From assembly GCA_965208125.1 (NCBI GenBank), contig OZ242320.1:4256001-4320000 (forward strand): DNA of 64,000 bases. The letters are read 5' to 3'. Positions 2,350 to 63,338 of the stretch are shown here, piece after piece (the first letter of the stretch is position 1; every line of letters starts with the position of its first letter). The notes beneath the pieces are model-generated. The model made no database searches, had not been told where the DNA came from, and saw only the letters and a program-made list of their open reading frames with translations. Source of the stretch: Candidatus Latescibacterota bacterium (GTDB lineage Bacteria > Latescibacterota > UBA2968). Both the position numbers and the translations under genes were made by a program.

Positions 2350-3192
2350 TCATTCCTTGAGTGCGGCAGCATCCTCAGCGATCCACTCTTCCCATCTCTC
2401 TTCGTCGGGTTGCATAAATCCACTGTTGGCTCGCCGAAATACATTTGCATCTTCGCCCAGGAGGCGCAGTAGGCGACGATTGCCAGTCGCTCGTGCTCGC
2501 GCTTTGACTGCTTGAGAAATTGGGCCTGAATAATTGGCTCTGTGTTTAAGCCAGGAGTGATTCATCGTTAAAAAGAAAAGATACCGATAGTTCTTTGAAT
2601 AATTGGCTGTTCCCGAGTGTACAATCGCATTGTGGAATACGGCTATATCTCCAGATTTGGGATAAAGGATCACTTCGTCGGGATGGGGTTGTTTTCTTTC
2701 TTCTTGTGTTAAAGTCAGGGCTTTCATGTGAGAACCTGGAATAATTCGCAGGGGGCCAATTTCATCATCGAGATCCTGTAAATAGCTCAGGGCATTGAAG
2801 AGTAAGGGTCTATGGTAGATGCCTTCTTGAGGAAATTCGGCAAACATGTCCCGGTGAAAACCCAGTACCGGGTTTGTGTTTGGGTCCTGTGGTGCCGTGC
2901 GCCGGTATGTGATGGATTCAAGCTGGACATGAGGGCCGACGATCATTTCAGTAAAGTCCAGGAGGCGCTTATTTGACAGGGCAGAGAGAATGAGATCGGG
3001 TTTGTGTTCTAACACATCGACAAAGACCTGGGGTCGGCTGCCATCGGGATTGGGGAGGCGATCACCGATTTCTTCAAATGAATCTCGCATGGCTTTGACC
3101 CAGACATCGTCCAGCATTTTTGGGAAAAGTGTAAATCCAACTGTTTTGAATTCTTCCAGGTGTTCTTCGAGGGATTTGGGATCTTTTTGCAT
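2350..3192 (-). CDS. Phytanoyl-CoA dioxygenase (PhyH) family Fe/2OG dioxygenase
   Basis: FHRD iron motif, IPGSH, distal VHSG, RBS GGAGG. Confidence 0.88.
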   Translation of the reverse strand: MQKDPKSLEEHLEEFKTVGFTLFPKMLDDVWVKAMRDSFEEIGDRLPNPDGSRPQVFVDVLEHKPDLILSALSNKRLLDFTEMIVGPHVQLESITYRRTAPQDPNTNPVLGFHRDMFAEFPQEGIYHRPLLFNALSYLQDLDDEIGPLRIIPGSHMKALTLTQEERKQPHPDEVILYPKSGDIAVFHNAIVHSGTANYSKNYRYLFFLTMNHSWLKHRANYSGPISQAVKARARATGNRRLLRLLGEDANVFRRANSGFMQPDEERWEEWIAEDAAALKE

Positions 3193-3235
3193 TTCAGCCT
3201 CCTGGTGTTTCAGTTTTCTTCATTTTTGGCAGAAA

Positions 3236-4582
3236 TCAGGATTGGAAAATTGTCCCGGGCCACGGGTAAGCGTTGGATCCAGCATCATCATCGATGGGGC
3301 CTTCCGGCAGTGTGGCTTGCCAATCCATGACCTGCTCTGACATCTGCTTGACCAGGATCTCTTCAAATTTGGTGTGATTGACGAGCTCCATCGGATCTGC
3401 AGGAATGTTGTACAGCTCGACACGACTTCTGTCCGGGTTGAGAAGCAGCTTCCAGTCACCCTCGCGGATTGAAAGGATCGGGCTTTTGTGAAGGCAATGG
3501 CCGTGAACCCGAAATCGCCACTCCCACATCAACGGCGTCGTGCGATCTACCGAGTTACCTCGAAAGGCGGCCGTCATATCCTCACCCTGCAGACCAATGT
3601 TGTCGGGAATGGCTACGCCAGCGATGGAACAAAAAGTAGGCAACAGGTCTATGGCACATAAGGGCGTCGTGTTGTCAACTTTGCCTTTTGGTCCGCCACT
3701 GCCTGGCCATCGAAGAATGAAAGGGGTTCGCACACCGCCTTCGTAGAGGCTTCTTTTTCGACCTCGAAAGGGACCAGAGGAACCGACGCCACTGTGTGAC
3801 GCATTTCGAAAGTGGATATCCTCAGGGCCGTTGTCAGCTGAGAAGATGACAATCGTGTTGTCGGAAAGGCCCAGTTGATCCAGCCGATCCATGAGCCGTC
3901 CAATGTGGTAATCTGCGTTGGTAACGACAGAATAGTAGATGCGTAGTGCACCTTTGTGTTTGTCTTCCAGGCCTTGAGCGGTAAGATTCATATAGGGTTC
4001 CATCTGCTCCTCTGTAGGATCCAGAGTGGCGTGGGTGTCAAGCAACCACGCTTGAACAAAGAAAGGCTCATCCCGATGTCTTTCGATGAAGGATATGGTT
4101 TCATCTATAATTACCTCTGTAGATTGAGATCTGCCTTCGGGAATCTCAATGGCGGGTCCGACCGCATTGAATGTTTTGGATTCGTCAATCCCATAAGCTG
4201 TGGTATTGGGTGCTTCTTCGCCACTTCCCAGGTGCCACTTGCCAAAGTGGCCAACAGCATAGCCACTTTGTTGCAGGAGACCCGTGATGGTCGTTGCATC
4301 GGGATCCAACCAGTCTGGCATGCCGCGTAGGGCGTTCTGCTCGTGACGGGCAAAATGGCCATGTATGCCCCAGTGGGCAGGAAAACGACCCGTCATGACC
4401 GCTGCCCGGCTGGGTGAGCACACACCCGAGCAAACATAGAATTGTGAGAAGAGAATGCCCTGCGAAGCGAGCCGATCCAGATTTGGCGTTTTTACAAACT
4501 GGTGGCCGTAGCAACTCAAGTCACCCCACCCCCAATCGTCGGCGAAGACAAATACGATATTGGGTCTTTTCGATTCAGCCAT
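3236..4582 (-). CDS. S1 sulfatase (N-acetylgalactosamine-6-sulfatase-like)
   Basis: RPNIVFVFADD, CSPSR, GKWHLG, DNG, YEGGVR. Confidence 0.93.
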   Translation of the reverse strand: MAESKRPNIVFVFADDWGWGDLSCYGHQFVKTPNLDRLASQGILFSQFYVCSGVCSPSRAAVMTGRFPAHWGIHGHFARHEQNALRGMPDWLDPDATTITGLLQQSGYAVGHFGKWHLGSGEEAPNTTAYGIDESKTFNAVGPAIEIPEGRSQSTEVIIDETISFIERHRDEPFFVQAWLLDTHATLDPTEEQMEPYMNLTAQGLEDKHKGALRIYYSVVTNADYHIGRLMDRLDQLGLSDNTIVIFSADNGPEDIHFRNASHSGVGSSGPFRGRKRSLYEGGVRTPFILRWPGSGGPKGKVDNTTPLCAIDLLPTFCSIAGVAIPDNIGLQGEDMTAAFRGNSVDRTTPLMWEWRFRVHGHCLHKSPILSIREGDWKLLLNPDRSRVELYNIPADPMELVNHTKFEEILVKQMSEQVMDWQATLPEGPIDDDAGSNAYPWPGTIFQS

Positions 4583-4604
4583 TGCGGTTCTCCTTAATAT
4601 CGAT

Positions 4605-5753
4605 TCACGAATTCAGTGCATTGCAGATGACGGCAGGTGGCGCAACTGTTACCGTTTCGCTCAAGGCAAACGGTGCATCCACTGGTGCCGCCACCCAGGA
4701 CTGATCCGGTTGGACATCGTCCAGCGCCGACCAGAAGCCGCGCTCGAGGCGGGGCGACGACGATGCTTTGATCTCCACCGCGACGAGCTTATTTCTCCGT
4801 CGGATCAGCAGGTCGATCTCAGCGCCAGCCGAGGTCCGGTAGAAGCTCAGTTCGGCGTCGGGCACCGCCGCGGCGATTTGCTCGATGACGTATCCTTCCC
4901 AGGAGTTGCCGCGAACCGGATGGCCATCCAGGTCGTCGAAAGAATCCAAACGCAGCAACCGGTGAAGGATGCCGGTATCTCTGAGATAAACACGGGGGCT
5001 CTTCACAAGGCGCTTCTTGACGTTGGCCGCGCAGGGCGAAAGCCGCCTTACCATGTAGGCCTGCTCAAGGATGCGGAGGTAATGTCCAACCGTCTTGCCC
5101 GTTACGCCCAGGGAAGAAGCCACTTTGGCGTGGTTCCACAGATCCCCGTGCAGGTGAGCGCACATCTCCCAGAATTGTCGTAGCGTTATCGCGGGTACGC
5201 GGATACCCAGTTGAGGAATGTCGCGTTCGAGAAACGTCTGGATGAAACTGTCCAGCCACGCCCGGCTCATTCCGTCTGATGGGGCCAGATAGCTTCGCGG
5301 GAATCCGCCTCGCAGCCAGAGCCTTGACTGATTCTCCACCCCGATCTCTTCTTCGACAAAGGGCGCCAGTTCGATGAAACCGATGCGACCGGCGAGCGTC
5401 TCAGACGACTGTTGGAGCAGATCTGGAGAAGCCGATCCCAGCACCATAAACTGTCCCGGAGAACCGGTCTCATCGCAGAGCCCGCGAAGTACGCGGAACA
5501 ATTCGGGGACGCGCTGGATCTCGTCGAGGCAGACGATGTGATCCCGATGGCGGCGGAGGTAATCTTCAGGCTCGGCCAGACGTGCGACGTCGGAGGGGAG
5601 CTCAAGGTCGAGATAGTGTGACGCCGGCTGTTCAGCAAGCCACGTCTTGGCCAGGGTGGTCTTTCCACACTGGCGAGGCCCCAGAATTGCCGTGACAGGG
5701 AAGTACCTCGCGTATTCAGAGACCTTTGTCTGAATTTTTCTGTTGATGTTCAT
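4605..5753 (-). CDS. AAA+ ATPase with DUF4143 and C-terminal PD-(D/E)xK-like domain
   Basis: Walker A GPRQCGKTT, Walker B LDEIQ, KSPRVYLRDTG, EIDLL...AVEIK. Confidence 0.9.
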   Translation of the reverse strand: MNINRKIQTKVSEYARYFPVTAILGPRQCGKTTLAKTWLAEQPASHYLDLELPSDVARLAEPEDYLRRHRDHIVCLDEIQRVPELFRVLRGLCDETGSPGQFMVLGSASPDLLQQSSETLAGRIGFIELAPFVEEEIGVENQSRLWLRGGFPRSYLAPSDGMSRAWLDSFIQTFLERDIPQLGIRVPAITLRQFWEMCAHLHGDLWNHAKVASSLGVTGKTVGHYLRILEQAYMVRRLSPCAANVKKRLVKSPRVYLRDTGILHRLLRLDSFDDLDGHPVRGNSWEGYVIEQIAAAVPDAELSFYRTSAGAEIDLLIRRRNKLVAVEIKASSSPRLERGFWSALDDVQPDQSWVAAPVDAPFALSETVTVAPPAVICNALNS

Positions 5754-5754
5754 T

Positions 5755-5789
5755 CTTGTAATATGGGAGTCTGACTCCCGATTTGCAAG
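5755..5789. promoter_or_regulatory. 35-bp imperfect palindrome directly upstream of the AAA/DUF4143 start (putative operator)
   Basis: CTTGTAATATGGGAGTC-T-GACTCCCGATTTGCAAG; core GGGAGTC/GACTCCC is a perfect inverted pair. Confidence 0.55.
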
Positions 5790-5823
5790 GATAAAACACA
5801 GTAGGCGGTAAGCCTTTACGCCA

Positions 5824-10167: not shown

Positions 10168-11646
10168 TCACGCAAACCCGCCGAGAAGCTGCTCTCTGGT
10201 CATTACCTTGATTGGTGGCAGGTTATCGACCATTCCCGCGTCCGTGCGTCGAAGCTCATCAATGGTTCCTTGCCGCAATTGGGCGAGCAACTCGTGGTAA
10301 TCGGATTCCAAAGCGAGGTTTTCCAGTTCCTCGGGGTCATTCTCGAGATCGTACATCTCTTCGATCTCCCCGGGGACGAGCCAGCGGATATATTTGTACT
10401 TTCCCGTGCACAGAGATACCCACCAGGGGATAGGAGGATTGCCTATTGGCTCGCCACAGCCGACATCGGTGTCTTCTCCAAAATAATGACCCGTACACTC
10501 CATCAGCAGCGGGCGATCCCATTCGGCGTTGGGATCGGAGAGCAATGGTGTCAGGTCCTCCCCGTGCATCTTCCAGGGTTGTTCCATGCCGATCAACGAG
10601 AGAAAGGTAGGCGGGATATCCTGGCCACCGATTGGCACATCGCATACTGTGCCTGCGGGAATCCGTCCCGGCAGCCGCATGATCATCGGTGCTTTGATAT
10701 TGGCATCATAGGGCGCCACCTTGAGTCGAAAGCCGTGCTGTCCCCAGGCAAATCCCTGGTCCGACGTAAAGACGACCAGGGTATCATCTAATTGCCCCAT
10801 CTCCTCTATGGCGCCGATCACCCTGCCAACCCCTTCATCCAGGGCGCGCACGCCCCGGTTGTATTGTTGTTCCCAATCGGTGAGGGTCCGTCCATCCCGG
10901 ATGCCTACCGGTTGGCCGTGATCTCCCTCGCGCCAAACACCATAGTCCCGCATATGTGTCGCCTTGGTCGGGCGCGGCGGATAGATGTCTTCTGGCGTGG
11001 GGACCTGGGAAACATCTGGATAATCCTGGAGATGGCGGTCAGCCACTTTCCAGGGGCCGTGTACTGCGTCATAGCACAGCCAGAGGTGCCAGGGCTTATC
11101 CGGTTCTTCTGCCCGTCCACGGAGAAATTCAAGTGCATACTCCGTGTAGTTATCGGTAGAATAGCCGCCAACCGGTTCCGGCGGCCCCCCGTTGATGCTC
11201 ATATTCTGATTGACATAGTAGGGCCCGTATTTCTCGGGTTGGCTGTGGTCCCAGATGGCAGAAAAATCCCAGTACCGACCGTGACCATGATCGGGACCTG
11301 TGTGCCATTTGCCGACGATGCCTGTGTACCAACCGTTCTCACGGAGATTCTCGAGCCAGTACGGACACTGGTCTGGATCGCGGACATAGTTTGGGTAGCT
11401 CGTGGGCAGGTGCATGCTCATCACGCCATGCGGCAATTTTCCGGTCAGGTACGTGGCGCGTGAAGGCGCACACCAGGCACTGGTATAGCAGTTGGAAAAA
11501 CGCATCCCCTCATGGGCGAGACGATCAATGTTTGGCGTACTGATCCACGAATGCGCCTCGGGATAGCAACTCACAGACCGAAAGCTCTGATCGTCGGTGA
11601 AGATGTATAAAATGTTGCTCGGATGGTTCGATTGATCATGGTTCAT
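10168..11646 (-). CDS. S1 sulfatase
   Basis: NILYIFTDDQ, CAPSR, GKWH, SDQG. Confidence 0.92.
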   Translation of the reverse strand: MNHDQSNHPSNILYIFTDDQSFRSVSCYPEAHSWISTPNIDRLAHEGMRFSNCYTSAWCAPSRATYLTGKLPHGVMSMHLPTSYPNYVRDPDQCPYWLENLRENGWYTGIVGKWHTGPDHGHGRYWDFSAIWDHSQPEKYGPYYVNQNMSINGGPPEPVGGYSTDNYTEYALEFLRGRAEEPDKPWHLWLCYDAVHGPWKVADRHLQDYPDVSQVPTPEDIYPPRPTKATHMRDYGVWREGDHGQPVGIRDGRTLTDWEQQYNRGVRALDEGVGRVIGAIEEMGQLDDTLVVFTSDQGFAWGQHGFRLKVAPYDANIKAPMIMRLPGRIPAGTVCDVPIGGQDIPPTFLSLIGMEQPWKMHGEDLTPLLSDPNAEWDRPLLMECTGHYFGEDTDVGCGEPIGNPPIPWWVSLCTGKYKYIRWLVPGEIEEMYDLENDPEELENLALESDYHELLAQLRQGTIDELRRTDAGMVDNLPPIKVMTREQLLGGFA

Positions 11647-11691
11647 TTGTTTGTTCTCCTGTCTTTTAAATTGGGTCGAAAATCCATCAGC

Positions 11692-13161
11692 TCAGCGTTT
11701 CACCTGGGTATAGGGGCTTGAAATATACTGCTTGTAGCCGTTAACCTCTCGTCCATGATTGCTGAAGAAATCGATCTGGGAAAACCCATCCTTTAACGGT
11801 ATGGTTGCAGTCCAGGCACCAGTCTTTGCATCGCGTTCCATATCCATCCATTGGTCTGCGGGGATTTGCTCGTGCAAGAAGGGGGCGGAACCTGCCGGAG
11901 CGCGATCATAGATCCACCATATGCGTCCGTTTATCGGCTGAGGTCCTTCATTAAAACGCACGCTGACACTTAGTTTGTCCTTGGAGATTTTATAATTTGA
12001 CTTCGGAGGCTGTAGCAAAGGCTCGCCACCAAAGAAGTGATGCCAGAGGAAGGCGTCTTTATTCTGTTCGTCCTTTGCAGCAGCGACATGCGGCGTTTGC
12101 GAGTGCCCACCGTTAGGTTCGTAATAGACTGGCAACTGGGGATGGTTTTGCGCTCCCCAGAGAATATCGTAGGCGACATAGTCATGCGTTCCCGGCTGAA
12201 AAAGAATATCAACGCCGCGCTCCATCAGACGATCCCAATTCTCCGTAACGCTCACCCCGGGCCGTAAGCGATCCGCAAAGCTTTGCATATCGTCCAGGGA
12301 TTTCCCCATTTTCAGCGCCATCTTACCCATACTGCGCTCAGATCCCACCATAACGCCTTGATACCATTTGGCGCGTTTTGGATCCAGGTCGATATCGCCG
12401 GCCTTTACAGCCTCAAAGAATGCTTTGTTTGCCTCTTCAGCTTTCGCCGTTGCTTCCCTGTCGGCTCTTCGAGTCGGCGAAAAGTAAGCAAACGCATGGT
12501 TGGAGCATGTCGCGGTAAAACGCTCGTCATGTATCAAGGCGACCGCAGGCGACATGCCGTTCTTGGAGCTGCCCGAACCGGCCACTTTGCCTTTTTCGAA
12601 GTAGTCGGTTTCCGCATACGCCGCGGTGGTTGCCCGCATTAAGGTCATCGACCAAATCCAGAGAGTCGTGTATCGAGGATTCAGGTCTTTCATGAACCTG
12701 CGCATCATTTTTTGCTCCAAACCCTGTTTCCCCGGAATCTGCCTAAACGCCTTGACGTGCGTCTTAACGAGGCCAACGCCACCTGCCAGCAGTTTTGCCT
12801 GAAAGTCGGTTGGGCGCGAGTCTTTCATCAACGTCTCATAGGGATTGGCTCCCGTAATGCTAAAGCCCTTCGCCTTGCCTTCGAGCGGCACAATCATACG
12901 CACCGGGATCCGATAATCTTGTCCCGGCCACCATTCGGCGACGTTGATTTCGATGAGCTTCTGTCGCGTCGTGCCTATCACCTCATCTACATGCCAGTCC
13001 TTCAACGTCTTTATATCCAGCGTGCTTTCGTCAAGAATCTCTTCAATATTGAACATGTCGCAATTCATACCAGAATCCTTCTCAGAATCGGCAGCAAACG
13101 CTACGGAAATCGCAAAAGTCGCGAGAATAACCAGCGATGCCATTATTCTAATTCTATCCAT
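11692..13161 (-). CDS. Secreted alpha/beta-hydrolase-like protein (PqaA-like), copy A
   Basis: Signal peptide (..SVAFA|AD); GSSKNG nucleophile-elbow-like motif, GTHD, NGGH; paralog of 16536..18020. Confidence 0.6.
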   Translation of the reverse strand: MDRIRIMASLVILATFAISVAFAADSEKDSGMNCDMFNIEEILDESTLDIKTLKDWHVDEVIGTTRQKLIEINVAEWWPGQDYRIPVRMIVPLEGKAKGFSITGANPYETLMKDSRPTDFQAKLLAGGVGLVKTHVKAFRQIPGKQGLEQKMMRRFMKDLNPRYTTLWIWSMTLMRATTAAYAETDYFEKGKVAGSGSSKNGMSPAVALIHDERFTATCSNHAFAYFSPTRRADREATAKAEEANKAFFEAVKAGDIDLDPKRAKWYQGVMVGSERSMGKMALKMGKSLDDMQSFADRLRPGVSVTENWDRLMERGVDILFQPGTHDYVAYDILWGAQNHPQLPVYYEPNGGHSQTPHVAAAKDEQNKDAFLWHHFFGGEPLLQPPKSNYKISKDKLSVSVRFNEGPQPINGRIWWIYDRAPAGSAPFLHEQIPADQWMDMERDAKTGAWTATIPLKDGFSQIDFFSNHGREVNGYKQYISSPYTQVKR

Positions 13162-13223
13162 TGCCTTCTCCTTTGCAGATTTGGTGTGGCTCGCTAAGAC
13201 CTATTTTGGTTCCAGGCTGTCTC

Positions 13224-13253
13224 TTAGACAACCGGCCTGATTTCAGGTGCTCC
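13224..13253 (-). pseudogene. Orphan 3' end of a PhyH paralog (GAPEIRPVV*)
   Basis: Minus strand GGA GCA CCT GAA ATC AGG CCG GTT GTC TAA. Same peptide as the C-terminus of 22885..23739; 24 bp identical to 18867..18890; overlaps, out of frame, the end of the 13243 gene. Confidence 0.8.
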
Positions 13254-14337
13254 GTCTCGCCGATGGCCTCGATGCGAAAGAAGCTGCAACCGTGCGAACA
13301 GCCTCGCTCCAATCATCCCAAAGCCCCGGACCTTCCGGGCGAGGCTCTGGCGGGGGAACTTCTGGCCCAAGTTCAAGTTCGTGGAGTTTTCTCACGTTGG
13401 GCGGTGGCGATGGTCGTGGCCCTTTGACATAACGGCCGTTATATACTCTGTCATATACAGATTTTTTGTAAGCATCATAAAGAATCATCTGTCGAATCTG
13501 CGGAGGATTGCTGTAGTTCCGCGTTGCCGAGTGGAACATTCGCCCGTGCCACAAAACCACATCGCCCTCGTCACCAAAAAACTCAAAGGGTTCAATGTCG
13601 GCGAGTGCGTCCTTGAGTCCTGCAGGCTGCGGCAAAACAAATGCCGCAGCGCCGCTTTCCGGATGGGGCGAATGTAGAATTGAATAGCGGGCAAGATCTA
13701 CAGAGTCCGGCTCTGCTTCGTAGAGCAAGCGGTGACTGCCGGGAAAAAGGGCGATGCCACCTCCACCCCTGGGAACCTGATCAACGTATGCGCTTGCCAC
13801 CAGATGCACCGGCTCGGGATCAATGTGTGCACCGGCACGGACGGCATCCGCCAGAGCAGGTGAGTCGCCAGGACGCTCTCTCGGCAGCACGCAATACATA
13901 CCGCGCAACTCCTTGCCACCCCAGACTGGCCAACCACGCAACCGACTTCCACGCGGATCTGGATCGGCCGCGGAGGAAGTTACCTCTGGTGTCACAACTT
14001 CACCTTCGCCGAGAAGTTGCTCAAACCACGGGAATACACGGCGTGGAAGCAAGTTGATTAAGTCCTCGTCGCCAGAGAGTTCACGCAATCGCCAGCCGTG
14101 GTCACCGGTGCGATCATTCATGCCATCAGGCGTGCTTTGACGATCTGCCTCCGGAAGACCGTTTAGCCAGGTTTGAGGATCGTCTCGGCGCAAATGACTT
14201 GAGGTGTTTCCCGCCCACAGCCTGTCCCGCGCTGCAGCACAAAGTTTGGGGTCGAGAATATTTCGTTTAACGAGGAATCCGTTCGTAATAAATTGTTGGA
14301 TCTCTTCTGTACTCAGTGCTGCCAATGCTGTATTCAT
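13243..14337 (-). CDS. PhyH family dioxygenase
   Basis: Start MNTALAALSTEEIQQFITNGFLV; HID motif, FPGSH, WHGRMFHS. Confidence 0.85.
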   Translation of the reverse strand: MNTALAALSTEEIQQFITNGFLVKRNILDPKLCAAARDRLWAGNTSSHLRRDDPQTWLNGLPEADRQSTPDGMNDRTGDHGWRLRELSGDEDLINLLPRRVFPWFEQLLGEGEVVTPEVTSSAADPDPRGSRLRGWPVWGGKELRGMYCVLPRERPGDSPALADAVRAGAHIDPEPVHLVASAYVDQVPRGGGGIALFPGSHRLLYEAEPDSVDLARYSILHSPHPESGAAAFVLPQPAGLKDALADIEPFEFFGDEGDVVLWHGRMFHSATRNYSNPPQIRQMILYDAYKKSVYDRVYNGRYVKGPRPSPPPNVRKLHELELGPEVPPPEPRPEGPGLWDDWSEAVRTVAASFASRPSARRST

Positions 14338-14354
14338 GGAAATAACCCTTCTTT

Positions 14355-14401
14355 CTTCAATACTGAACCATTGTACGGACTTCAATACCGAACCATTGTA
14401 C
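14355..14401. repeat. 22-bp tandem direct repeat (2 copies, period 25) in a promoter region
   Basis: CTTCAATACTGAACCATTGTAC / CTTCAATACCGAACCATTGTAC, 1 mismatch. Confidence 0.85.
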
Positions 14402-14423
14402 AAAAAAAAGAGTTGGATTTCAA
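14395..14423 (-). promoter_or_regulatory. Sigma70-like promoter for the 14337 gene
   Basis: Minus strand TTGAAA-17 nt-TACAAT. Confidence 0.65.
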
Positions 14424-14604
14424 CAATTCTTAAAAGACAGGTACTTACGGAAGGCGATATATGTTATTGGGATTTTGCTCGAAAATCACCCTGAACAAAT
14501 TCGCTTGCTTCATGTCTGTCTCTTTTTGTAGTATGCATCCGAATCCTGCCCCTGGACACCAGCAGTAGTTTTGGTGATTTCAAATACATTGAGGAGGAAG
14601 AAAA

Positions 14605-16167
14605 ATGAAAGCAAGACCATTCAAAGGTGCGAAGATAGGCAGGGCTCTGACCATTGCATTGCTATTGGCTTTGACCGCGGGCAACGTCGCGGCCCAAAGC
14701 CCCACCGAGCTGCCGGCCAAAGATTTGAGCACGATTGATTTGTCAAAATCGGAAGGTGCTAAATACTTTCTCATAGTAAAGGCTTATGCCGATTATATGA
14801 TTATCCACGGGCGCGACCGTTACGGAAGAGAACATTCGCCCCTTTTTGCCACAACGCTTAACCGGGAAACCGGAAATGTATATCGCGAAAATCCTCCCGA
14901 TGCACCCAAAGGTATCCGCAATGGCGATCGCACTTGGCGTGGTTCAAATACGTCAAAAGATAATGGTTTATACAGCATACTTTATCATTTGACAGAAATC
15001 ACCGGAGATGACAAGTATGCACGGGAAGCGGATAAAGCAATCAAATGGTTTTTTGCCAACTGCCAAAGTCCTGAAACGGGATTTATGGCCTGGGGAGAAC
15101 ACATCGGTTGGGATTTTTTTACAGAGGCGCCTATTAAAATGGGTACTCGATCTTTGACACACGAGTACAAAATTTTCAATTATTGGGACAAGGTGTGGGA
15201 ATTTAATCCGGAAGCTGCTGAAAAGTTTGCACTGGGATTATGGGAACACCAGATTTATGCGCACGAAGGACCAGAAGCGGGCGAGTTTAGCCGACATGCC
15301 AGTTATGACACGCATAGTCCTGGAAAAGGAAGAGCTTTTCCCGCACATGGCGGCAATTATATCTATGTTTGGACAAAAGCATATCGGGAAACTGGCAAAG
15401 AAGTTTTTTTAACCGCCATTGAAACCGTATTGAATTATTATGAGCGAAATACAACCGATAAAGGTGCGATCTTATATGCATCAGATTTTCCTGAGCAATA
15501 TTCTTTGAAACAAAGTATGAATCTGGCATCCAATCTTTATCGCGCAAAGGATTTTATGCCCGCAGACCTTGCAAATAGGATGAAGAAATTGTCAGAAGGA
15601 ACAGATTCTTTGTATTTAAGTTTTGATCACGATCCGTCAAAAGGCGGAAAAGGATTTCTTGAATCCGCCAATCTTATGACCCTTGTACCGGGGAATTTTC
15701 GGAGGTCAAGTACTGGAACGGATGCCTGGACTGAAATGTGGTCGGCTGGTTATGGGGTGGGATCGGGAAGTACCGAGCAGGCAAACAAATGTTATGCGCG
15801 GTATAAACTAACAGGTATTGAAGGCTATAGAATCCTTTTTATGAAAGCGGTGAATGCCTATTACAACGAAGATCCTCCGCCGTCAGCAGTACTTTATCCC
15901 AGCAATTATTCCAGCATATTTAATATGATGATGAGTGCGTATGAATTAACAGGGGCAGAACGTTTTTTAAGCAAAGCAAAAACGTATATGGACTTATCGG
16001 TAGAAACTTTTCTGAGTGATCAATCCCCTCTGCCAAAAGCATCAAACCAAAGTGAACATTATGAAGCCATAACAGGTGGCCCAGAATTAATGGAAAATGT
16101 GCTGCGTTTATGGATGGTGATGAATCCTCAGGATCGTGCTGGCGAAACTGAAATAGGTGAAAAATAA
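14605..16167 (+). CDS. Secreted hypothetical protein, probable alpha/alpha-barrel glycan-active enzyme
   Basis: RBS GAGGAGG, signal peptide; GRDRYG..HSPLF, WGEH, FSRHA, FPAHGG, HYEAITG motifs; AT-rich body. Confidence 0.6.
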   Translation: MKARPFKGAKIGRALTIALLLALTAGNVAAQSPTELPAKDLSTIDLSKSEGAKYFLIVKAYADYMIIHGRDRYGREHSPLFATTLNRETGNVYRENPPDAPKGIRNGDRTWRGSNTSKDNGLYSILYHLTEITGDDKYAREADKAIKWFFANCQSPETGFMAWGEHIGWDFFTEAPIKMGTRSLTHEYKIFNYWDKVWEFNPEAAEKFALGLWEHQIYAHEGPEAGEFSRHASYDTHSPGKGRAFPAHGGNYIYVWTKAYRETGKEVFLTAIETVLNYYERNTTDKGAILYASDFPEQYSLKQSMNLASNLYRAKDFMPADLANRMKKLSEGTDSLYLSFDHDPSKGGKGFLESANLMTLVPGNFRRSSTGTDAWTEMWSAGYGVGSGSTEQANKCYARYKLTGIEGYRILFMKAVNAYYNEDPPPSAVLYPSNYSSIFNMMMSAYELTGAERFLSKAKTYMDLSVETFLSDQSPLPKASNQSEHYEAITGGPELMENVLRLWMVMNPQDRAGETEIGEK

Positions 16168-16204
16168 ATACAATTTCAACTTACAGAGAAATAGGGAAGT
16201 GACC

Positions 16205-16342
16205 ATGCAAAAAACTAAAACCACCTGATTGGAGGAGCACAATATGGGACTGGAAGTTTACGATTCAATACGGTGGAATCACATCAGTAAAACCAGTTTT
16301 TTCATTTGGAGAAAATCAATCAGTCAGGAGTCTAACAGATGA
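16205..16342 (+). pseudogene. Two consecutive RBS+ATG gene-start stubs (MQKTKTT*; MGLEVYD...)
   Basis: GGGAAG..ATG 16205-TGA 16228; GGAGGA..ATG 16244-TGA 16342; neither leads into a full gene. Confidence 0.45.
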
Positions 16343-16468
16343 ACAATACCAACTGAGCCTGGTTTGGGTATTAGCATCGATGAAGATAAACTCATGGCAC
16401 AGGTTGGCGAACCCCGGCCCCGCAGCACCAGTTACGGTCTCGATGATGGATCGGTTGTAGACTGGTAG
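16339..16468 (+). pseudogene. Remnant of a galactonate dehydratase/enolase-superfamily gene (last ~40 codons, preceded by RBS+ATG stub)
   Basis: 16346-16468 reads IPTEPGLGISIDEDKLMAQVGEPRPRSTSYGLDDGSVVDW*, a DgoD-like C-terminus (PGLGI.ID, DGSVxDW); AGGAG+ATG at 16339 is out of frame. Confidence 0.75.
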
Positions 16469-16535
16469 GATTTGCCATAATTTTTAGGAAAACGAACGCG
16501 CAACCCCAATGATCCCATTTGCTTCACCTCAGCCA

Positions 16536-18020
16536 TCAATGCTGAGATGGCGAAAGTTCCACTCGGGTATAAGGGCATGAAAGATACTGCTTGTAGCCGT
16601 TAACCTCTCGTCCATAATTGCTAAAGAAATCGATCCGAGAAAACCCCTCCTTTAACGGTATGGCTGCCGTCCATACGCCAGTCTTTGCATCATATTCCAT
16701 CTCCATCCATTGGTCTTCGGGGATTTGCTCGTGCAAGAATGGGGCGGAACCTGCCGGAGCGCGGTCGTAGATCCACCATATGCGTCCACTTTTCGGCTGA
16801 GGTCCTTCATTAAAACTCACGCTGACACTTAGTTTGTCCTTGTCGACTTTATGGCTCGACTTCGGAGGCTGTAGCAAGGGCTCGCCGCCAAAGAAGTGAT
16901 GCCAGAGGAAGGCATTGAGATTCTGATTATTTTTTGCTGCCGCGCTATGCGGTGTTTGTCTGTGTCCACCATTGGGTTCGTAATAGACCGGCAACTGAGG
17001 ATGGTTTTGCGCGCCCCAAAGAATGTCAAATGCAACATAGTCATGTGTTCCCGGCTGAAAAAGCATATCGACGCCTCGCTCCGTTAGCCGATCCCAATTC
17101 TCTGTCACACACAATCTGCTAAGAATGCAATCTGCCAGGTTGTGTATTTCGTCCCAGGATCTTCCCGCTTTCAACGCAAGTTCATGCAGACTCCTCTTTC
17201 CTCCCACCATATTGGCTTGATACCAACGCGCGCGTTGTTTGTTTAAATCGACATTGCCTGCCTTGACAGCCTCAAAGAATGCTTTGTTTGCCGCTCGCAC
17301 GTTATCCATCTCTTCCCTGTCAAATCTTCGAGTCGGCGAATAGTAAGCAAAGGCTCTATTGGAACATGTCGCGGTAAAACGCTCGTCATTAATCAAGGCG
17401 GTAGCAGGCGATATGCCGTTCTTGGAGCCGCCTGAGCCGGCCACTTTGCCTTTTTCAAAATGATCGGTTTCCGCATACGCGGCGGTTACAGCCCGCATTA
17501 AAGTCATCGACCAAATCCAGACCGTCGTGTATCGCGGGTTAAGGTCTTTCAGAAACAATTGTCCCACCTCTTGTTCCAGTCCCTGTTTTCCCGGGATCTG
17601 ATTGAACACCTTGACAACAGTCCTGACAATGCCAACGCCATTGGCTAACAGTTTTGCCTGAAAGGCGTTTGGTTTCGAATCTTTCATCAGTGCTTCATAT
17701 GGACTTCCTCCTGTGATATGAAAGCCCTTTGCTTTACCTTCGAGCGGCACAATCATGCGCACTGGAATCCGATAATCTTGTCCAGGCCACCATTCGGCGA
17801 CGTTGATTTCGATTAGCTTCTGTCGCGTCGTGCCTGTCGGCTTGTCCGTGTGCCAATCTTCCAACGTCTTTATATCCAGCGTGCTTTCGTCAAGAATCTC
17901 TTCAATATTGAACATGTCGCAATTCATACCAGAATCCTTCTCGGAATCGGCAGCAAACGCTACGGAAATCGTAAAAGTCGCGAGAATAACCAGCGATGCC
18001 ATTATTCTAATTCTATCCAT
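16536..18020 (-). CDS. Secreted alpha/beta-hydrolase-like protein (PqaA-like), copy B
   Basis: Paralog of 11692..13161; GGSKNG, GTHD, NGGH. Confidence 0.6.
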   Translation of the reverse strand: MDRIRIMASLVILATFTISVAFAADSEKDSGMNCDMFNIEEILDESTLDIKTLEDWHTDKPTGTTRQKLIEINVAEWWPGQDYRIPVRMIVPLEGKAKGFHITGGSPYEALMKDSKPNAFQAKLLANGVGIVRTVVKVFNQIPGKQGLEQEVGQLFLKDLNPRYTTVWIWSMTLMRAVTAAYAETDHFEKGKVAGSGGSKNGISPATALINDERFTATCSNRAFAYYSPTRRFDREEMDNVRAANKAFFEAVKAGNVDLNKQRARWYQANMVGGKRSLHELALKAGRSWDEIHNLADCILSRLCVTENWDRLTERGVDMLFQPGTHDYVAFDILWGAQNHPQLPVYYEPNGGHRQTPHSAAAKNNQNLNAFLWHHFFGGEPLLQPPKSSHKVDKDKLSVSVSFNEGPQPKSGRIWWIYDRAPAGSAPFLHEQIPEDQWMEMEYDAKTGVWTAAIPLKEGFSRIDFFSNYGREVNGYKQYLSCPYTRVELSPSQH

Positions 18021-18039
18021 TGCCTTCTCCTTGCTGTCT

Positions 18040-18786: not shown

Positions 18787-18866
18787 GGAGAATCTCCCTT
18801 TCTATATGGTCAGGTAAACCAGACCCTGGTTCGCTTCTATTTCCTCTGTTCCGTTCCCTATCTTTT

Positions 18867-18929
18867 TTAGACAACCGGCCTGATTTCAGGCGCGCGTTCC
18901 ACTTGTTCCTGCGTTAATATTTGCTCCAT
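18867..18929 (-). pseudogene. Collapsed PhyH minigene MEQILTQEQVER-APEIRPVV*
   Basis: RBS GGAG, ATG 18929, 20 codons, TAA 18867. PhyH-type N-terminus (LTQEQVE) joined in frame to the PhyH C-terminus seen in the 22885 gene. Confidence 0.8.
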
Positions 18930-18973
18930 TACATCTCCAGAAAATCAGTATTGATAAAAACACAGAGGGGATT

Positions 18974-20401: not shown

Positions 20402-20496
20402 ATCTATCCCTCAAATTTGTCGTTCGCGGTATTCCCTACTTGTTAAACCAAAGAAGCTGCAATCCGTTTTCGCTCACAGTACTTTTTAATTTTCGT

Positions 20497-23739: not shown

Positions 23740-23785
23740 TGTTTGTCCTCCATTCAACAATTTTTAAAATATAAGTTTATCGCTT

Positions 23786-44748: not shown

Positions 44749-44776
44749 TGATTCTACCCCTGTTGTTCGTATTGCG

Positions 44777-49890: not shown

Positions 49891-52131
49891 TCAGAGATGC
49901 CCGCCAGACTCCAGGATACGCTCTTCCACTCTGAGAGGGGTCGGTCGGAGTCCAAAATCTCTCCATCCCCAGTCCACATGGATTTTGGGCATGTCGAATT
50001 CAAAATACCAGCGAATACTGATGGGATCTCGATCGATACCAAAATATCCGAGGAAAAGCGCGCATTTTCCGGTGACCTCCTCGATTACGTCGAAAGGGGT
50101 CAGATCGTGAAACTCCTCGATATCTTCTTCCACCTCCAGGTAACGGTACAGATCGGCTTCGTAAGACTCCGCCTGGTTGGGCCTGAGGCTCGTGAGATCA
50201 AGAGGCTCGTGCGCGTTCCACCTGGGCAGGTCATCTTGCTCAGATCCATCCGGACAGAAGGTCCAGATTGGCGTGGACCATGCATATTCACCGTCGATTT
50301 GGCGGAGACGAACGTAATAGGCTCCCTCTCGCTGCGGAATCTCGTCGGCGTAGATCAGATCTATATCGAGTGCATCGGGATGCCATGAGTGGAGACAACG
50401 GTCATTCCGAATCAAATCTACTCTCTGCACGGGAGCACAGGCGTGCGCGCAAATGGTGATCTCAGCAGGAGCCGAGATTTTGGCCTCGCTGCCCGCAGCG
50501 TGTCCGTTGACATCTACGGTCAGGATGATGCGCGCCCCAGTGGTGGCGAAGGTGCGCCGATCCCGAATCGCCTTCCAGATTTCGTTACGCTCACAGCGCG
50601 CTGCCCAAACGGCGGCGATCGGTCCATTCCCATACCCGGTGTCTCGGAAGTTCAAGCCAATATTGTGCCACCTCCCGAAGTAGTCTTTGGCGGCGATTGG
50701 AGCGCCCATCGTAGCAAGGTGGGTGTCCCCCGATCCAATAACGGCTGGGCGAAAGCCACAGCGCAGGGCCCACTGGAGCACCCATTCAAAGCAGCCATGC
50801 CCGCTGGCGACCTCAAGAAGCGGCTCGTGACTGGGAAGATAATCGTACCATTGGGGGGGACCACCCCCGATGTGGGCTTCAAGGATCACATCCTCCCGCT
50901 CTCCAAACTCGGCCATCACTTCGTCCATGGTGCAGAAGGTGGGGGGATAGGTTTCAGTCCATTCACGGTAGATCACGTTCCGATCCCCTCCAGGTCTCGG
51001 GTGAACCTCTGAAGCAAGAAAAGGAACGTAAGTCCCCGGCTCATCGTTGTTCCGATAAGCTTGCTGATAGGCACGCCACAGCTCTGGTCGGTCCTCCTGG
51101 ATTGGCGGAACGGCTGGTCCCGGCGCCCCAAAGTCCAGCCGACCGACTCTCCGCAACTGTTCGTGTCTCCGCTCAGGATGAATCTTGAAGGTGGGATCGT
51201 CCAGTAGCGACATGCTAATGTCGCCCCATCCGTGGCAATGGAGATCTCCCCAGAGGAGACGGTGGTCGTGCTGTTCCTTGCAGAGGATGGGGTTGCTTAC
51301 TGCCCTTAGACCGTGGCGTTCGTCTTCCGCGATCAGACGGATAAGGCCGGGTTCTGGTATGCGAATGTCTTCCAGAATCACGAGTCCGCTATCACTGGAG
51401 CCCAACGAGATGGATTTGGGCAACCCCTCAACCGCTGAAATCGGACCAGAGAAGGCCACTCGACCCTCAAATTGCTCGCAGATGTTGTGGCTTGCATCGA
51501 AGGCCATCAGATGCAGTGCAAAGGCCTCATCGGGCGTAACGATCGACGGGCCCAGAAGCCGAAGCAGCGTCGGCACAGGATTGGATGTGATTTGAATCCT
51601 ACAAGGGTTGCAGACCAGTTCCCGATAGACGCCATCCCCTGTCCGATCCACGGCACCGGTAATCCGCCCCAGAGTCGTTCCGTCATAAACGGCGCTCCCC
51701 GCGCCTCCATAGCTTGAATCGCCAATCTGAATAGTGAAGGAATCATCGGCTTTCATCTCACCCTCATCGACCAGCACCTGGGCGAATCCAGGACGGTGGG
51801 ACTGCTTTTCTGAATTGACGACTAGGCGTAAGGCCGCATCACATTGGGTTTTTAGAGTGACGAAATCACGTCCCTTTGGGTTGTAGTCCTGAATTCGATG
51901 CGAAAACAGAAACGAGTGCCGCTGAAAAAGAAAACCGCCGCCGGCAGTTATGGTTTCTGATGCGGTGGCAGTAATCTTCCACATCCCCAACTTGCCTGCG
52001 GGCAATTCCAGATCGTGCCCACAGCTACGTGAGCCGTCACTTCCGTGAAATTCGACCTCGAACGCATCGGGCTCGTTACCCGACACAGGTTGGACTGTGA
52101 TGCTGACGCGCTGCACTCGTGATTTTGGCAT
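49891..52131 (-). CDS. DUF3604-like PHP-fold metallohydrolase, copy B
   Basis: WGDLHCH, GDRNV, EVASGHG, GSGDTH, RRTFATTG; full-length paralog of 44777. Confidence 0.75.
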   Translation of the reverse strand: MPKSRVQRVSITVQPVSGNEPDAFEVEFHGSDGSRSCGHDLELPAGKLGMWKITATASETITAGGGFLFQRHSFLFSHRIQDYNPKGRDFVTLKTQCDAALRLVVNSEKQSHRPGFAQVLVDEGEMKADDSFTIQIGDSSYGGAGSAVYDGTTLGRITGAVDRTGDGVYRELVCNPCRIQITSNPVPTLLRLLGPSIVTPDEAFALHLMAFDASHNICEQFEGRVAFSGPISAVEGLPKSISLGSSDSGLVILEDIRIPEPGLIRLIAEDERHGLRAVSNPILCKEQHDHRLLWGDLHCHGWGDISMSLLDDPTFKIHPERRHEQLRRVGRLDFGAPGPAVPPIQEDRPELWRAYQQAYRNNDEPGTYVPFLASEVHPRPGGDRNVIYREWTETYPPTFCTMDEVMAEFGEREDVILEAHIGGGPPQWYDYLPSHEPLLEVASGHGCFEWVLQWALRCGFRPAVIGSGDTHLATMGAPIAAKDYFGRWHNIGLNFRDTGYGNGPIAAVWAARCERNEIWKAIRDRRTFATTGARIILTVDVNGHAAGSEAKISAPAEITICAHACAPVQRVDLIRNDRCLHSWHPDALDIDLIYADEIPQREGAYYVRLRQIDGEYAWSTPIWTFCPDGSEQDDLPRWNAHEPLDLTSLRPNQAESYEADLYRYLEVEEDIEEFHDLTPFDVIEEVTGKCALFLGYFGIDRDPISIRWYFEFDMPKIHVDWGWRDFGLRPTPLRVEERILESGGHL

Positions 52132-55932: not shown

Positions 55933-56718
55933 CTACCTTCTTTTTGCACTAATTTCAGCGATGGTATCACCGGTTATTTTGACGGTGTGGGTATCTACTC
56001 GCTCAACGTCCTCACGGGCAGCTCTGGCCTCGGCACTATCGGCGGACTGATATTCGGTCGCGAAAATATACGGGGATGGGATTGTATAAGGTGCGATTTT
56101 CCCGATCCGCCCCATGGCCTTGCGAGCGCCTTCTCGGAGCAGATCCCGAGCTTTAGTGGGGGAGAGGGAGAGGGCAGCCGTGCGGCTGAGCCCCTCTTTC
56201 ACGACAACGCCTTCAATGTCGGGAACGTATTGTCGAGCCTCATCTACAGCAGCTCGATCCCCGCTGATGAAAACTGTGGGCACGCCAACCTCACCGGCAT
56301 GGGCTATGTTGAAACCAATTTCACCGATCAGTTCATCATTCAACCAGCAGTTGGCAATGCTTCGGGAGCTCCAGCTGTGACACAGCACACCATCAGGTGT
56401 GTTCTCCATCGCGTGATGGCCATACAAAAACTGCGCCTCAAATGTCAATCCCATCTCCCACGCAGAGCCTCTGGGGCGACCGAACATCACCCGGGCTTCG
56501 CGGTGGATGTGTTCGATATTGATTCCGCCGCTGCCGTGTCCGTCCAGCACGATAGGGTCAGTGGCGCCTCCTTCCATAGCACCGTCTATGAGGGCGTTGA
56601 TCTCCAGAGTGGCGAGATATTTGGCCTGTTCGTTGTCGCGCCCCCCGTCGTAAGTCTGAGTTTTGAAATCTACGACGCCGGCAGTGCCTTCCAAATCGCA
56701 CAAGATAAGAATTCTCAT
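55933..56718 (-). CDS. M55 family D-aminopeptidase (DppA-like)
   Basis: DLEG, DGHG, GHHA, LCHS, GEIG, ISGD. Confidence 0.9.
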   Translation of the reverse strand: MRILILCDLEGTAGVVDFKTQTYDGGRDNEQAKYLATLEINALIDGAMEGGATDPIVLDGHGSGGINIEHIHREARVMFGRPRGSAWEMGLTFEAQFLYGHHAMENTPDGVLCHSWSSRSIANCWLNDELIGEIGFNIAHAGEVGVPTVFISGDRAAVDEARQYVPDIEGVVVKEGLSRTAALSLSPTKARDLLREGARKAMGRIGKIAPYTIPSPYIFATEYQSADSAEARAAREDVERVDTHTVKITGDTIAEISAKRR

Positions 56719-57883: not shown

Positions 57884-57940
57884 CTTTTCATCTCCAGAGG
57901 ATAGGGACATACGCCTGCATCCGATAGAGAAGACTTTTAT

Positions 57941-58000
57941 CTTCTTTTTTGGCTAATTTCAGCGATGGTATCGCCGGTTATTTTGATGATATGGATATCT
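57941..58000 (-). pseudogene. Degenerate duplicate of the M55 gene 3' end
   Basis: 57953-58000 matches 55949-55996 at 43/48 nt; reads DIHIIKITGDTIAEIS versus DTHTVKITGDTIAEIS. Confidence 0.8.
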
Positions 58001-58183
58001 CCTTCCACGATGTATCACATTGTCAAAATACATGATTGTGGGGTGCTCCTGCAAGCAGAGATGTGTCCGCTCCTCTTAGAGATGCTCTGTCCAATTGCGT
58101 TTGACTTCGGCATGGCCACTTTCTATCTTGCCCCTGAAAGATATTTTGCTACCTGGATCAATTTTTTGGAGGAGGATCGGAGG

Positions 58184-61990: not shown

Positions 61991-62018
61991 GGGTGTTCCT
62001 CCAAATACTTTGCTAATA

Positions 62019-62123
62019 TCAGTTTTGAGGAAAATGAGCAACTGTTTCGCCGCTTTCATCGAGAAATTCTAATCTGGCTGTGCCTTCTGGTTCAACAGAA
62101 AGTCTTATTCGGATCTTTGAATC
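62019..62123 (-). pseudogene. Orphan 3' end of a hypothetical gene
   Basis: DSKIRIRLSVEPEGTARLEFLDESGETVAHFPQN*, protein-like, with no start codon before an upstream in-frame stop. Confidence 0.5.
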
Positions 62124-62210
62124 TTCAGTACAGTAGTGCGCTGTACTTCAAGGAGTTCTCCCACTGTTTGATACAGACAATCTATATGCTGCCACACACG
62201 TTCTAATGTC

Positions 62211-63338
62211 TCACTCGATGTCATGGAAATTTCTCCTTTCAAATGGTTCGATTTTATTATTCTCAACAATAACTGATGAACGATCTATTGGAGCAACATC
62301 AATTTCAACAACTAATATCTTTGGATCGTTGGTGTAAAAAACATTGTTCACAACAGTGTTATCCCTCCCTGTTGGAGCAGGGATATTTTTCTGATCAAGA
62401 TAGTCCACCCTTACTGGATCGTCCGTTTTTTTATTTAAAATCTGAATATATCGAGTCAGGTTCTTATTAGATCCGATGAATTTATTATCCTTTATGATGT
62501 TGGCAAATCCCGATAGTTTGACAACTTCTTTATTGTAGGATTTTTCATAACAGTATAGAATATTATTCTGGACGGTTACAAATGAGGCCGCGTATTTGAT
62601 ATCGATATATTGCCCCAGTAATCCCGGTCCCAATATGCTTTCCTCAATTATGATATTATGGGCTCTTGCCATTTTTCCTCTTTCTTCAAGCCCTTTTGAT
62701 GAACCAATATAAAAGCCTTCTCCTTCATGAGCGTTATAATCTTTATCCAGCCATTCTCCAATATGATGAATTTTCATTCTTCTAAAGGTGTTATGGTGAC
62801 TTTCATTCCTGACAGCTACAGCAGTGTTATGTGTATGATGTATATGCACATCTTCAATAACATTATGATGTGATCCCGATCCCAATAAATATAAACCGAT
62901 ACGAAAACCATGCGTGTTCCAATACCCCTTGTCCAGAGACACTTTCTTCCCGGTTATTTCTATGCGGGAAATGTTCCAGAACGAGCCACTTAGTTTGATT
63001 GCTACCAAATCCTCTTCCTTTTTTTGACCAACTGTGGAAATTACAGCATATCGACCCTGGCCTGTGCTGTCTTTTGATGTAAGGGTGATTCTGTTTTTAT
63101 CGGATCCATTTGCATGTAGCTTAAAACTCTTATCAATTTCATACACTTTGCCGCCCTGAAGCATAATCGTATCACCTGGCTTGACGGTATCCAATGCATC
63201 GTAAACATCCTTGCTTGTAGCGCATTGATAAATATCGCTAGCGTAAAGCACATTGATATTGGCAATCAACAGGGAAAAGGAAATAATTAAAGGGGGCAAG
63301 AGCCGTTTAGGGGCTAAATTGTTAATGACGTTTTTCAT
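62211..63338 (-). CDS. Secreted right-handed beta-helix protein (polysaccharide lyase-like, PL31-like motif)
   Basis: Signal peptide; VKPGDTI, IHH, GEGFYIGS, IDIK; markedly AT-rich. Confidence 0.65.
   Translation of the reverse strand: MKNVINNLAPKRLLPPLIISFSLLIANINVLYASDIYQCATSKDVYDALDTVKPGDTIMLQGGKVYEIDKSFKLHANGSDKNRITLTSKDSTGQGRYAVISTVGQKKEEDLVAIKLSGSFWNISRIEITGKKVSLDKGYWNTHGFRIGLYLLGSGSHHNVIEDVHIHHTHNTAVAVRNESHHNTFRRMKIHHIGEWLDKDYNAHEGEGFYIGSSKGLEERGKMARAHNIIIEESILGPGLLGQYIDIKYAASFVTVQNNILYCYEKSYNKEVVKLSGFANIIKDNKFIGSNKNLTRYIQILNKKTDDPVRVDYLDQKNIPAPTGRDNTVVNNVFYTNDPKILVVEIDVAPIDRSSVIVENNKIEPFERRNFHDIE

Follow-up and report, generated by a model that had tools for sequence, protein, structure and literature searches.

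A variable genomic island of predicted sulfated-glycan catabolism genes in Candidatus Latescibacterota, probably shaped by duplication, loss and interspecies recombination

Background

Additive flexible genomic islands, known from Alteromonas and other aquatic bacteria, are the closest described kind of locus to the one reported here, a densely packed array of catabolic genes in the chromosome of a Candidatus Latescibacterota bacterium; as outlined by Lopez-Perez and Rodriguez-Valera, their cassettes join by illegitimate recombination and remain almost the same from species to species even as the core genomes diverge (PMC4898812). The array lies in a stretch of 64,000 nt, hereafter the window (contig OZ242320.1 of assembly GCA_965208125.1; G000 C1:4256001-4320000), in a single-contig genome of 5.75 Mb with a GC content of 51.2%, and the gene-array span considered is window positions 2350-63338. 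Genes are named below by the lower of their window coordinates. Like the additive islands of that outline, the locus occupies the same chromosomal place across species, carries differing combinations of function-related units and is more similar between species than the core. Unlike them, the window has no tRNA/tmRNA anchor, two compared pairs of empty and filled sites show no direct repeats, and most of the units consist of one gene and not of several. The island is also much larger, at no less than 230 kb, has one enzyme-family theme, and owes much of its variation to traceable local duplications and losses.

Integrons, including sedentary chromosomal ones, resemble the locus in their long co-oriented single-gene arrays, variable content and short spacers. 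They differ from it in that no attC-like sites and no adjacent IntI were found here, and each gene has its own ribosome-binding site; the genes also average ~1.4 kb, which exceeds typical integron cassettes. The sulfatase-rich clusters of Planctomycetota, Verrucomicrobiota, PAUC34f and Poribacteria, and the polysaccharide utilization loci (PULs) of Bacteroidota, likewise place formylglycine-type sulfatases beside lyases and glycosidase-like genes. The locus departs from them in that the window contains neither the SusC/SusD pair of Bacteroidota PULs nor a TonB receptor or sugar transporter, in that most of its sulfatases lack a signal peptide by a simple hydrophobicity check, and in the close interleaving of sulfatase and PhyH genes. 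Tandem duplication-random loss is a model of gene-order change that comes from animal mitochondrial genomes. Order changes in the array similarly fit segment duplication followed by loss, with remnants at predicted places; the setting differs, since here an island of a bacterial chromosome contains hundreds of paralogs that are dispensable, and interlineage recombination is superimposed.

An earlier note, made from the DNA letters alone, had read the array as an integron-like enzyme library in which single genes are gained and lost by recombination near gene ends, and had named ordinary deletion bias in a duplicated region as its null model. The comparisons reported here show the locus to be a well-marked flexible genomic island, and indicate that this null model together with interspecies recombination explains it best.

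Results

Gene presence and order vary among congeneric species

Regions of 80-120 kb around the ortholog of gene 32512 were fetched from eight congeneric species, and orthologs were called at a minimum of 80% identity and 80% coverage. All 43 genes of the array have an ortholog in at least one of the eight congeneric islands, and there was no sign of the open acquisition array that had been proposed. Seven genes are common to all eight relatives and 36 are variable. The number of the 43 genes present in a single relative ranges from 15 to 39, and 20 partial remnants, each shorter than 60% of the gene length, were found among the relatives. Gene order also varies: 23786 adjoins 18974 in six relatives, and genes 22885, 21999 and 20497 intervene in G000 and in the relative G015. 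Alignment of the eight relatives thus agreed with the view that genes are present or absent singly between species and that their order changes.

Two slots, 4600-5800 and 16147-16555, were found in three or four states among the species, including one with a sulfatase head remnant in G006. At the slot of the ATPase gene 4605, G015 has no gene and G006 has a different one, with no target-site duplication. In the slot of G006 equivalent to 16147-16555 (locus L025, 10248-11459), the sulfatase head remnant is accompanied by a gene of 403 aa whose product, on visual inspection of the C-terminal motif, resembles dioxygenases of the TauD/TfdA type.

Reconstructable events are duplications followed by loss

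The order of four genes in G014 is 23786-18974-22885-20497. In G000 and G015 it is 23786-22885-(21999)-20497-18974, followed by a remnant of a 22885-type tail at 18867. This order and scar are as expected if the segment 18974-22885-20497 had been duplicated and one copy of each gene then lost, and the tail of PhyH gene 22885 at 18867-18893 sits where the order in G014 and G006 predicts the lost duplicate. Gene 32512 also has a second copy in G014, 10 kb from the intact one, with an internal deletion that joins residues 1-156 to residues 600-744. The prediction of duplication and loss held for these two cases, the 18867 tail and the 32512 copy of G014, and does not extend to every rearrangement. 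The events that could be reconstructed were duplications followed by loss, in line with the null model of deletion bias in a duplicated region.

Two pairs of duplicated genes remain in the window (Table 1). In the DUF3604 pair only the first gene (44777) is present in G014 and G004. For the pair formed by 11692 and 16536, the Atlas match of 11692 to PhoPQ_related is a lead only. Insertions were also seen. A 138-nt element resembling a miniature inverted-repeat transposable element (MITE) has an identical copy 47 kb downstream (genome positions 4351541-4351678), and its site at 48253 is empty in G015 and G008; the ends of this element match ~945-bp elements of the IS4/5 type elsewhere in the genome. 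Insertion sequences (IS) of 1.2-1.4 kb lie inside the island in G015, G017, G008 and G002. Neither target-site duplication nor direct or inverted repeat was present at two pairs of empty and filled sites.

Gene-end breakpoints are a genome-wide feature

Comparison of the window with the eight relatives by blastn gave 290 break ends in 91 distinct clusters. The distance to the nearest gene end is at most 50 nt for 62 of these 91 breakpoints, against 11.2% for random positions, so that the closeness to start and stop codons noticed earlier is real. As a property of this locus it did not hold up. When five 20-kb regions elsewhere in the genome were run through the same pipeline against five relatives, the proportion of break ends that close to a gene end was 134/160 (84%) in the window and 99/136 (73%) in the controls. 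Because the control regions show nearly the same bias, gene-end breakpoints are a feature of the genome and are not specific to the locus. Breaks numbered 5.3 per 20 kb in the window and 2.7 in the controls, a roughly twofold difference that is one of degree and not of kind. An early estimate that the window was 5-10 times more rearranged was abandoned when the matched analysis gave about 2 times.

Scar density was not raised above the genome background, as had been supposed, by either of two automated measures. Matches to the genome's own proteome (tblastn) occurred in one of 24 short window spacers, with ~1.1 expected from genome-wide rates, and gene fragments at the nucleotide level in 1/24 window spacers compared with 75/1665 genome-wide (Fisher p = 1), measures that miss scars which only relatives reveal and that depend on a crude gene caller. 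Sequence repeated more than three times in the genome was contained in 331 of the 1665 intergenic spacers (40-400 nt), and the genome is rich in small dispersed repeats, an example being repeats of ~67 nt in the control region L128.

Gene remnants at junctions

Nine short junctions had been listed as carrying pieces of other genes. Five (13224, 16205-16342, 16339-16468, 18867 and 57941) were upheld. The four others (40048, 40250, 41382 and 62019) were dropped, having matches only to orthologous spacers of relatives or to spurious antisense open reading frames (ORFs) when spacers 40040-40319, 41367-41427 and 62060-62210 were searched by blastx, blastn and tblastx against the own proteome and the eight relatives. 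A tblastn match of spacer 44097-44776 to the own proteome was likewise rejected as a scar, since it is part of an overlooked real gene at 43930-44808.

The last 27 nt of PhyH gene 22885 recur at 13224-13250 and 18867-18893, and these two copies are 96% identical to each other. The junction segment that holds the first copy is absent in the compared relatives, and the aligned blocks of seven of the eight begin at 13284. This copy is read out of frame, giving the PhyH gene 13243-14403 a novel short C-terminus. Inside the second copy, three independent metagenome contigs have a 2-nt indel. Remnants of three genes are pieced together in spacer 16168-16535. The source genes of its two joined 5'-end remnants are both intact in G002, where their starts are ~1.7 kb apart. 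Its third remnant, of the MR_MLE type, has 47% identity by tblastn to the C-terminal ends of two paralogs that the genome carries at other places, and no intact source gene was found in the fetched regions of the eight relatives.

The remnant at 57938-58003 is 85% identical to 55934-55999, the tail of the M55 peptidase gene, and is overlapped by the start of the plus-strand BNR gene 57965; tblastn found it also in G006 (31 aa) and G002 (19 aa). Two scars were added to the earlier list: a sulfatase-gene fragment directly downstream of the stop codon of gene 32512, and a small scar in the middle of spacer 20402-20496.

Each gene retains its own leader or flank of ~35-40 nt, and the spacers themselves are mosaic. 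Single genes with this leader could be true mobile modules, passed between species of this sponge-associated genus by a novel recombination route at intergenic junctions, which would amount to cassette exchange without attC or IntI. This was considered quite improbable; if true, it would explain the recurrent module ends, the slots with several states and the halved silent-site divergence described below.

Silent-site divergence is reduced across the island

Nucleotide identity to five species was 93.9-96.9% in the window (15 comparisons) and 89.2-94.1% in the control regions (25 comparisons). Mean identity at third codon positions was 91.5% in the window compared with 84.2% in the controls, and every window value but one was higher than every control value. 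The third-position divergence of the window from the five species is therefore about half that of the controls. Within a single relative, block identities ranged from 86% to 99%. Gene 11692 is 98% identical in G009 but 87% identical in G015, the species to which most other genes are closest. Together, the halved third-position divergence, the mixed block identities and the affinity of gene 11692 to G009 suggest that segments of the island have been exchanged between species of the genus.

A purely vertical history was also weighed, in which a huge ancestral array was differentially lost with no exchange and the low divergence results from a regional mutation rate or from constraint. Loss is documented by the remnants and duplicates, the relatives rank in roughly the same order of identity in the window and in the controls, and the regions at -200 kb and +180 kb are intermediate. 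This history is nevertheless unlikely, as it sits poorly with the spread of block identities inside one relative and with the differing affinities of gene 11692; furthermore, third-position identity is ~7 points higher, and constraint on dispensable genes is an improbable cause of this.

Base composition and the search for integron hallmarks

The composition of the array changes from gene to gene, as the earlier note had described. The AT-rich genes 14605, 25875 and 62211 have GC contents of 43.6%, 41.3% and 37.8%, and the GC-rich genes 4605, 36745, 40320 and 57965 have 59.3%, 58.5%, 62.3% and 58.6%. The mean neighbour-to-neighbour jump in GC content at third codon positions (GC3) is 0.099, a value equalled by 1.6% of same-size gene windows genome-wide; the GC3 standard deviation of the window is matched by 11% of such windows.

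A heuristic for R''/R' consensus pairs with complementary arms detected no attC-like site, either in the window or in its two flanks; it also found none in shuffled sequence and so has low power. The statement that there are no attC sites stands with that limit, and 21 of 40 spacers are below 50 nt, shorter than any attC. A repeat search found no shared junction motif beyond the tails of paralogs. The nearest tyrosine recombinase (G000 4368012-4368842, 276 aa) lies ~48 kb past the window end in the same orientation as the genes. Its best NCBIfam and PDB matches are integron integrases, with a score for TIGR02249 of 196.9 bits against a cutoff of 265, and it lacks the IntI-specific insert, having 26 residues where IntI4 (2a3v) has the 68 (173-240) that include this insert. 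The recombinase adjoins an element of the IS4/5 type, at the place where the high-identity mosaic zone ends.

A dedicated integron-like system that lacks attC and IntI, and that captures and swaps single genes by recombination at gene ends, was judged highly improbable. It would account for units of variation that are single genes with their own leaders, for the same module ends in eight genomes and in independent metagenomes, for slots with three or four different occupants and for the unusually large GC3 jumps between neighbours, and a tyrosine recombinase with integron integrases as its best matches does lie near the right end of the island. These observations are set against a gene-end bias that the controls share, the want of a common junction motif and of attC-like pairs, with half of the spacers too short to hold one, a distant recombinase that scores below the cutoff and lacks the IntI insert, and empty and filled sites that show no duplication or inverted repeat. 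With all 43 genes belonging to the pool of the genus, and scar density not raised, the proposal of an integron-like enzyme library was not sustained.

Extent of the island and support for the assembly

Relative to the window, a high-identity mosaic of small blocks extends leftward to about -120 kb and rightward to about +112 kb. The right-hand limit of high identity falls between +105 and +113 kb, and long collinear blocks of 90-94% identity resume at +124 kb. The island is thus at least ~230 kb long, and the window is its middle part. The left flank holds further sulfatases, PhyH genes and enolase-family genes, together with an RND pump. The right flank (G000 4320001-4366000) has a run of small genes on the minus strand, among which GNAT acetyltransferase, APH phosphotransferase, NUDIX and DUF5069 domains recur; it forms a variable array of a second type next to the sulfatase part. 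Pfam searches found no TonB-dependent receptor or SusD in the window or in the 74 flank proteins scanned.

The right end of the high-identity zone, with its IS4/5-type element and tyrosine recombinase, and the abundance of IS and MITE elements would fit a recent spread of the whole island among the species as a large integrative mobile element, with the mosaic arising afterwards. Such an origin is very unlikely. In the relatives the chromosome on either side of the island is collinear, no conjugation or phage genes were present among the 74 flank proteins, and a region of this length with no clear left end is unlike a discrete element.

Sequence near-identical to the window is present in sponge and marine metagenomes, and 14 DNA runs contained at least half of the sampled words of 11500-21000. 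Parts of 11001-31000 were uncovered in single runs, which is no evidence of absence. Contigs of run X1 bridge 13438-16613 and 18003-22665, across spacers that carry scars. In other samples, contigs join 11648 to 18817, 16146 to 18956, 20438 to 23801 and 18847 to 11668, and these joints are other arrangements at the same module ends, which speaks against a chimeric assembly. In run X15, an RNA library from a sponge metatranscriptome, contigs within 11001-31000 cover several genes (for example 11668-12949 and 22237-23339) and two alternative module joints; this is not proof of transcription.

As the genome is a single contig assembled from a metagenome, in a habitat where several related species co-occur, the array could in principle be a chimera of fragments from co-occurring strains. 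The bridging of two stretches, including two scar-bearing spacers, by contigs of an independent run, and the finding of the same modules and boundaries in eight other genomes, six of them single-contig, make an assembly artefact extremely improbable.

Gene content of the array and revised gene models

The array had been described as about 45 tightly packed catabolic genes, mostly co-oriented, which holds in substance. ORF calls give 43 genes within the span, 38 on the minus strand and five (14605, 21999, 36745, 40320 and 57965) on the plus strand, with a median spacer length of 47 nt. By Pfam, the 43 genes include 11 sulfatases (PF00884) and seven genes with the PhyH domain of Fe/2-oxoglutarate dioxygenases, one of which is fused to an alginate-lyase domain. 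One PL4-like and one pectate-lyase-like gene were identified, as well as pairs of BNR/sialidase-like genes, DUF3604 genes, Abhydrolase_7 esterases, GFO/IDH/MocA oxidoreductases and 2-hydroxyacid dehydrogenases. An M55 peptidase, a DegT aminotransferase and an AAA_14/DUF4143 ATPase occur once each. Transporter, regulator and integrase domains were found by Pfam in none of the 43 genes, as had been reported.

Nine genes had no Pfam match at 1e-5, and an NCBIfam scan of their nine proteins gave no assignment. PDB sequence searches with proteins 30363, 11692 and 54405 returned no match; by the same kind of search, protein 59463 resembles GH50 beta-agarases and protein 62211 resembles an alginate lyase. 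The 308-aa protein of 38257-39183 has no Pfam match, and the position of its ortholog in the relatives matches PhyH 39212 at 26-27% identity; it is probably a divergent PhyH-like protein. Beside this gene, the PhyH paralogs differ from species to species. A scan of the window with Rfam at gathering thresholds found nothing, and no tRNA or tmRNA genes were detected in it.

The sulfatases were classed as of the formylglycine type from the PF00884 domain, the C/S-x-P-x-R motif and the presence of an FGE maturase in the genome. The Cys form of the motif, C-x-P-x-R, is present in nine of the 11 genes; matches to FGE-sulfatase (PF03781) number 12 in the genome, none of them within the window. In most window sulfatases (genes in 3236-49815) a simple hydrophobicity check detected no hydrophobic segment at the N-terminus, and most begin a few residues ahead of the catalytic domain. 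Because of these two features, the enzymes may be cytoplasmic.

Matches to PhyH (PF05721) number at least 154 in the 5.75-Mb genome, where they are scattered, and 0 in 14 well-known control genomes. An expansion of PhyH domains to a similar abundance is among the features described for Poribacteria (PMC3909097), and sulfatase enrichment among those described for PAUC34f and Poribacteria (PMC7081726). Literature searches on PhyH paired with sulfatases in symbionts found no paper on the pairing.

Three genes had been singled out as truncated or fused. Gene 25875 is not decapitated, being full length in seven of the eight relatives with a conserved GGAGG and a GTG/ATG start; its true start is likely the GTG at ~27257, which is preceded by GGAGG. 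Gene 27322 proved to be a real fusion or fission gene, with a module boundary at 28075 that is common to four of the eight relatives: in G017, G008, G014 and G009 the parts on its two sides occupy separate positions or are absent. Its Atlas similarity to PL8/heparinase-type lyases is weak (0.80). Gene 32512 is a true two-domain gene, and the fusion is old and conserved: it is full length and 94-98% identical in 13 of the 18 genus genomes searched, and 71-83% identical in more distant metagenome-assembled genomes. The antisense ORF 36868-37983 was rejected as a gene in favour of the plus-strand sulfatase that it overlies.

Table 1 Coordinates of features in the window, with the evidence for each
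Feature	Start	End	Strand	Evidence and remarks
AAA_14/DUF4143 ATPase gene	4605	5753	-	Pfam; present in G000, G017 and G004 only
Secreted protein, family not recognised	11692	13161	-	Paralog of 16536-18020, ~89% nucleotide identity over the 3' 300 nt
Junction segment with PhyH 3'-tail copy (13224-13250)	13162	13283	-	Repeat family D6; blastn
Two joined 5'-end remnants (~12 and ~20 codons) of plus-strand genes	16192	16319	+	Comparison with G002
Remnant of MR_MLE-type (enolase-superfamily) dehydratase gene, last 40 codons and stop	16346	16468	+	tblastn with own proteome
Second member of the duplicated pair with 11692	16536	18020	-	Repeat search; relatives
PhyH gene 3'-tail remnant	18867	18893	-	Spacer after sulfatase 18974; repeat search, blastn
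BNR_4 gene	25875	27302	-	Pfam; relatives; start-site conservation
Two-module large lyase-like gene	27322	30013	-	Relatives; intragenic boundary 28075
L-rhamnose mutarotase gene	30014	30328	-	TIGR02625, E 5e-37, above cutoff; masked by over-long ORF 27322-30135
Copy of a sulfatase-gene fragment, 39 nt, 90%	32473	32511		Matches 37132-37167 inside 36745-38232
Alginate-lyase and PhyH domain fusion gene	32512	34746	-	Pfam
Sulfatase gene	36745	38232	+	Pfam
Segment with two DUF3604 paralogs (44777-46963, 49891-52131; repeats spaced 5147 nt)	44777	52131	-	Pfam; repeats
MITE-like insertion, 138 nt, 20-nt terminal inverted repeats	48253	48390		Repeat search; blastn
M55 D-aminopeptidase paralog 3'-tail remnant, ~20 codons and stop	57938	58003	-	Repeat D4

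Discussion

The variation of this locus reveals no new genetic machine, because the control regions share its gene-end breakpoints and the hallmarks of integrons are absent. A succession of ordinary processes is proposed in its place. Segments of the island would duplicate locally, and one copy of each duplicated or dispensable gene would then be deleted. Erosion would halt at the stop codon or ribosome-binding site of the retained neighbour and leave short tails or heads behind as scars, which is proposed as the reason why breakpoints cluster at gene ends. IS and MITE elements would occasionally insert. Finally, homologous recombination between species of the genus would swap segments of the island, bringing silent-site divergence to about half that of the rest of the chromosome.

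Several observations weigh against this account. The count of order changes, 1.0 per 20 kb in the window and 0.16 in the controls, is biased towards the window, larger regions of the relatives having been fetched for it than for the controls, and the genome-wide gene calls came from a crude ORF caller. The GC3 jumps between neighbours, in the top 1.6% of the genome, hint at mixed gene origins. At least one former resident, the MR_MLE-type gene of remnant 16346-16468, came from outside the sampled pool, because the regions of the eight relatives hold no close intact copy and the paralogs in the genome are only 47% identical. The slots with three or four states also fit repeated insertion. The direction of most events, taken here as loss, is an inference, and some differences in presence and absence may be true gains. 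The low silent-site divergence could come from a regional effect on mutation rate instead of gene flow, and the regions 180-200 kb away are intermediate, with identities of ~92-94%.

Conclusions

Duplication with subsequent loss, combined with recombination between species, probably accounts for the island, which on the evidence of its gene families may be an enzyme store for the breakdown of sulfated glycans in a Candidatus Latescibacterota genus of sponges and marine metagenomes. The locus shows an uncultured lineage of sponge and marine symbionts keeping a large repertoire of enzymes, predicted to act on sulfated glycans, that differs from species to species and is drawn from a shared pool. 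Each gene behaves as a separable unit, and silent sites have diverged about half as far as in the rest of the chromosome. With several complete genomes at hand, the genus is a good natural system for measuring duplication, loss and interspecies exchange in a catabolic island.

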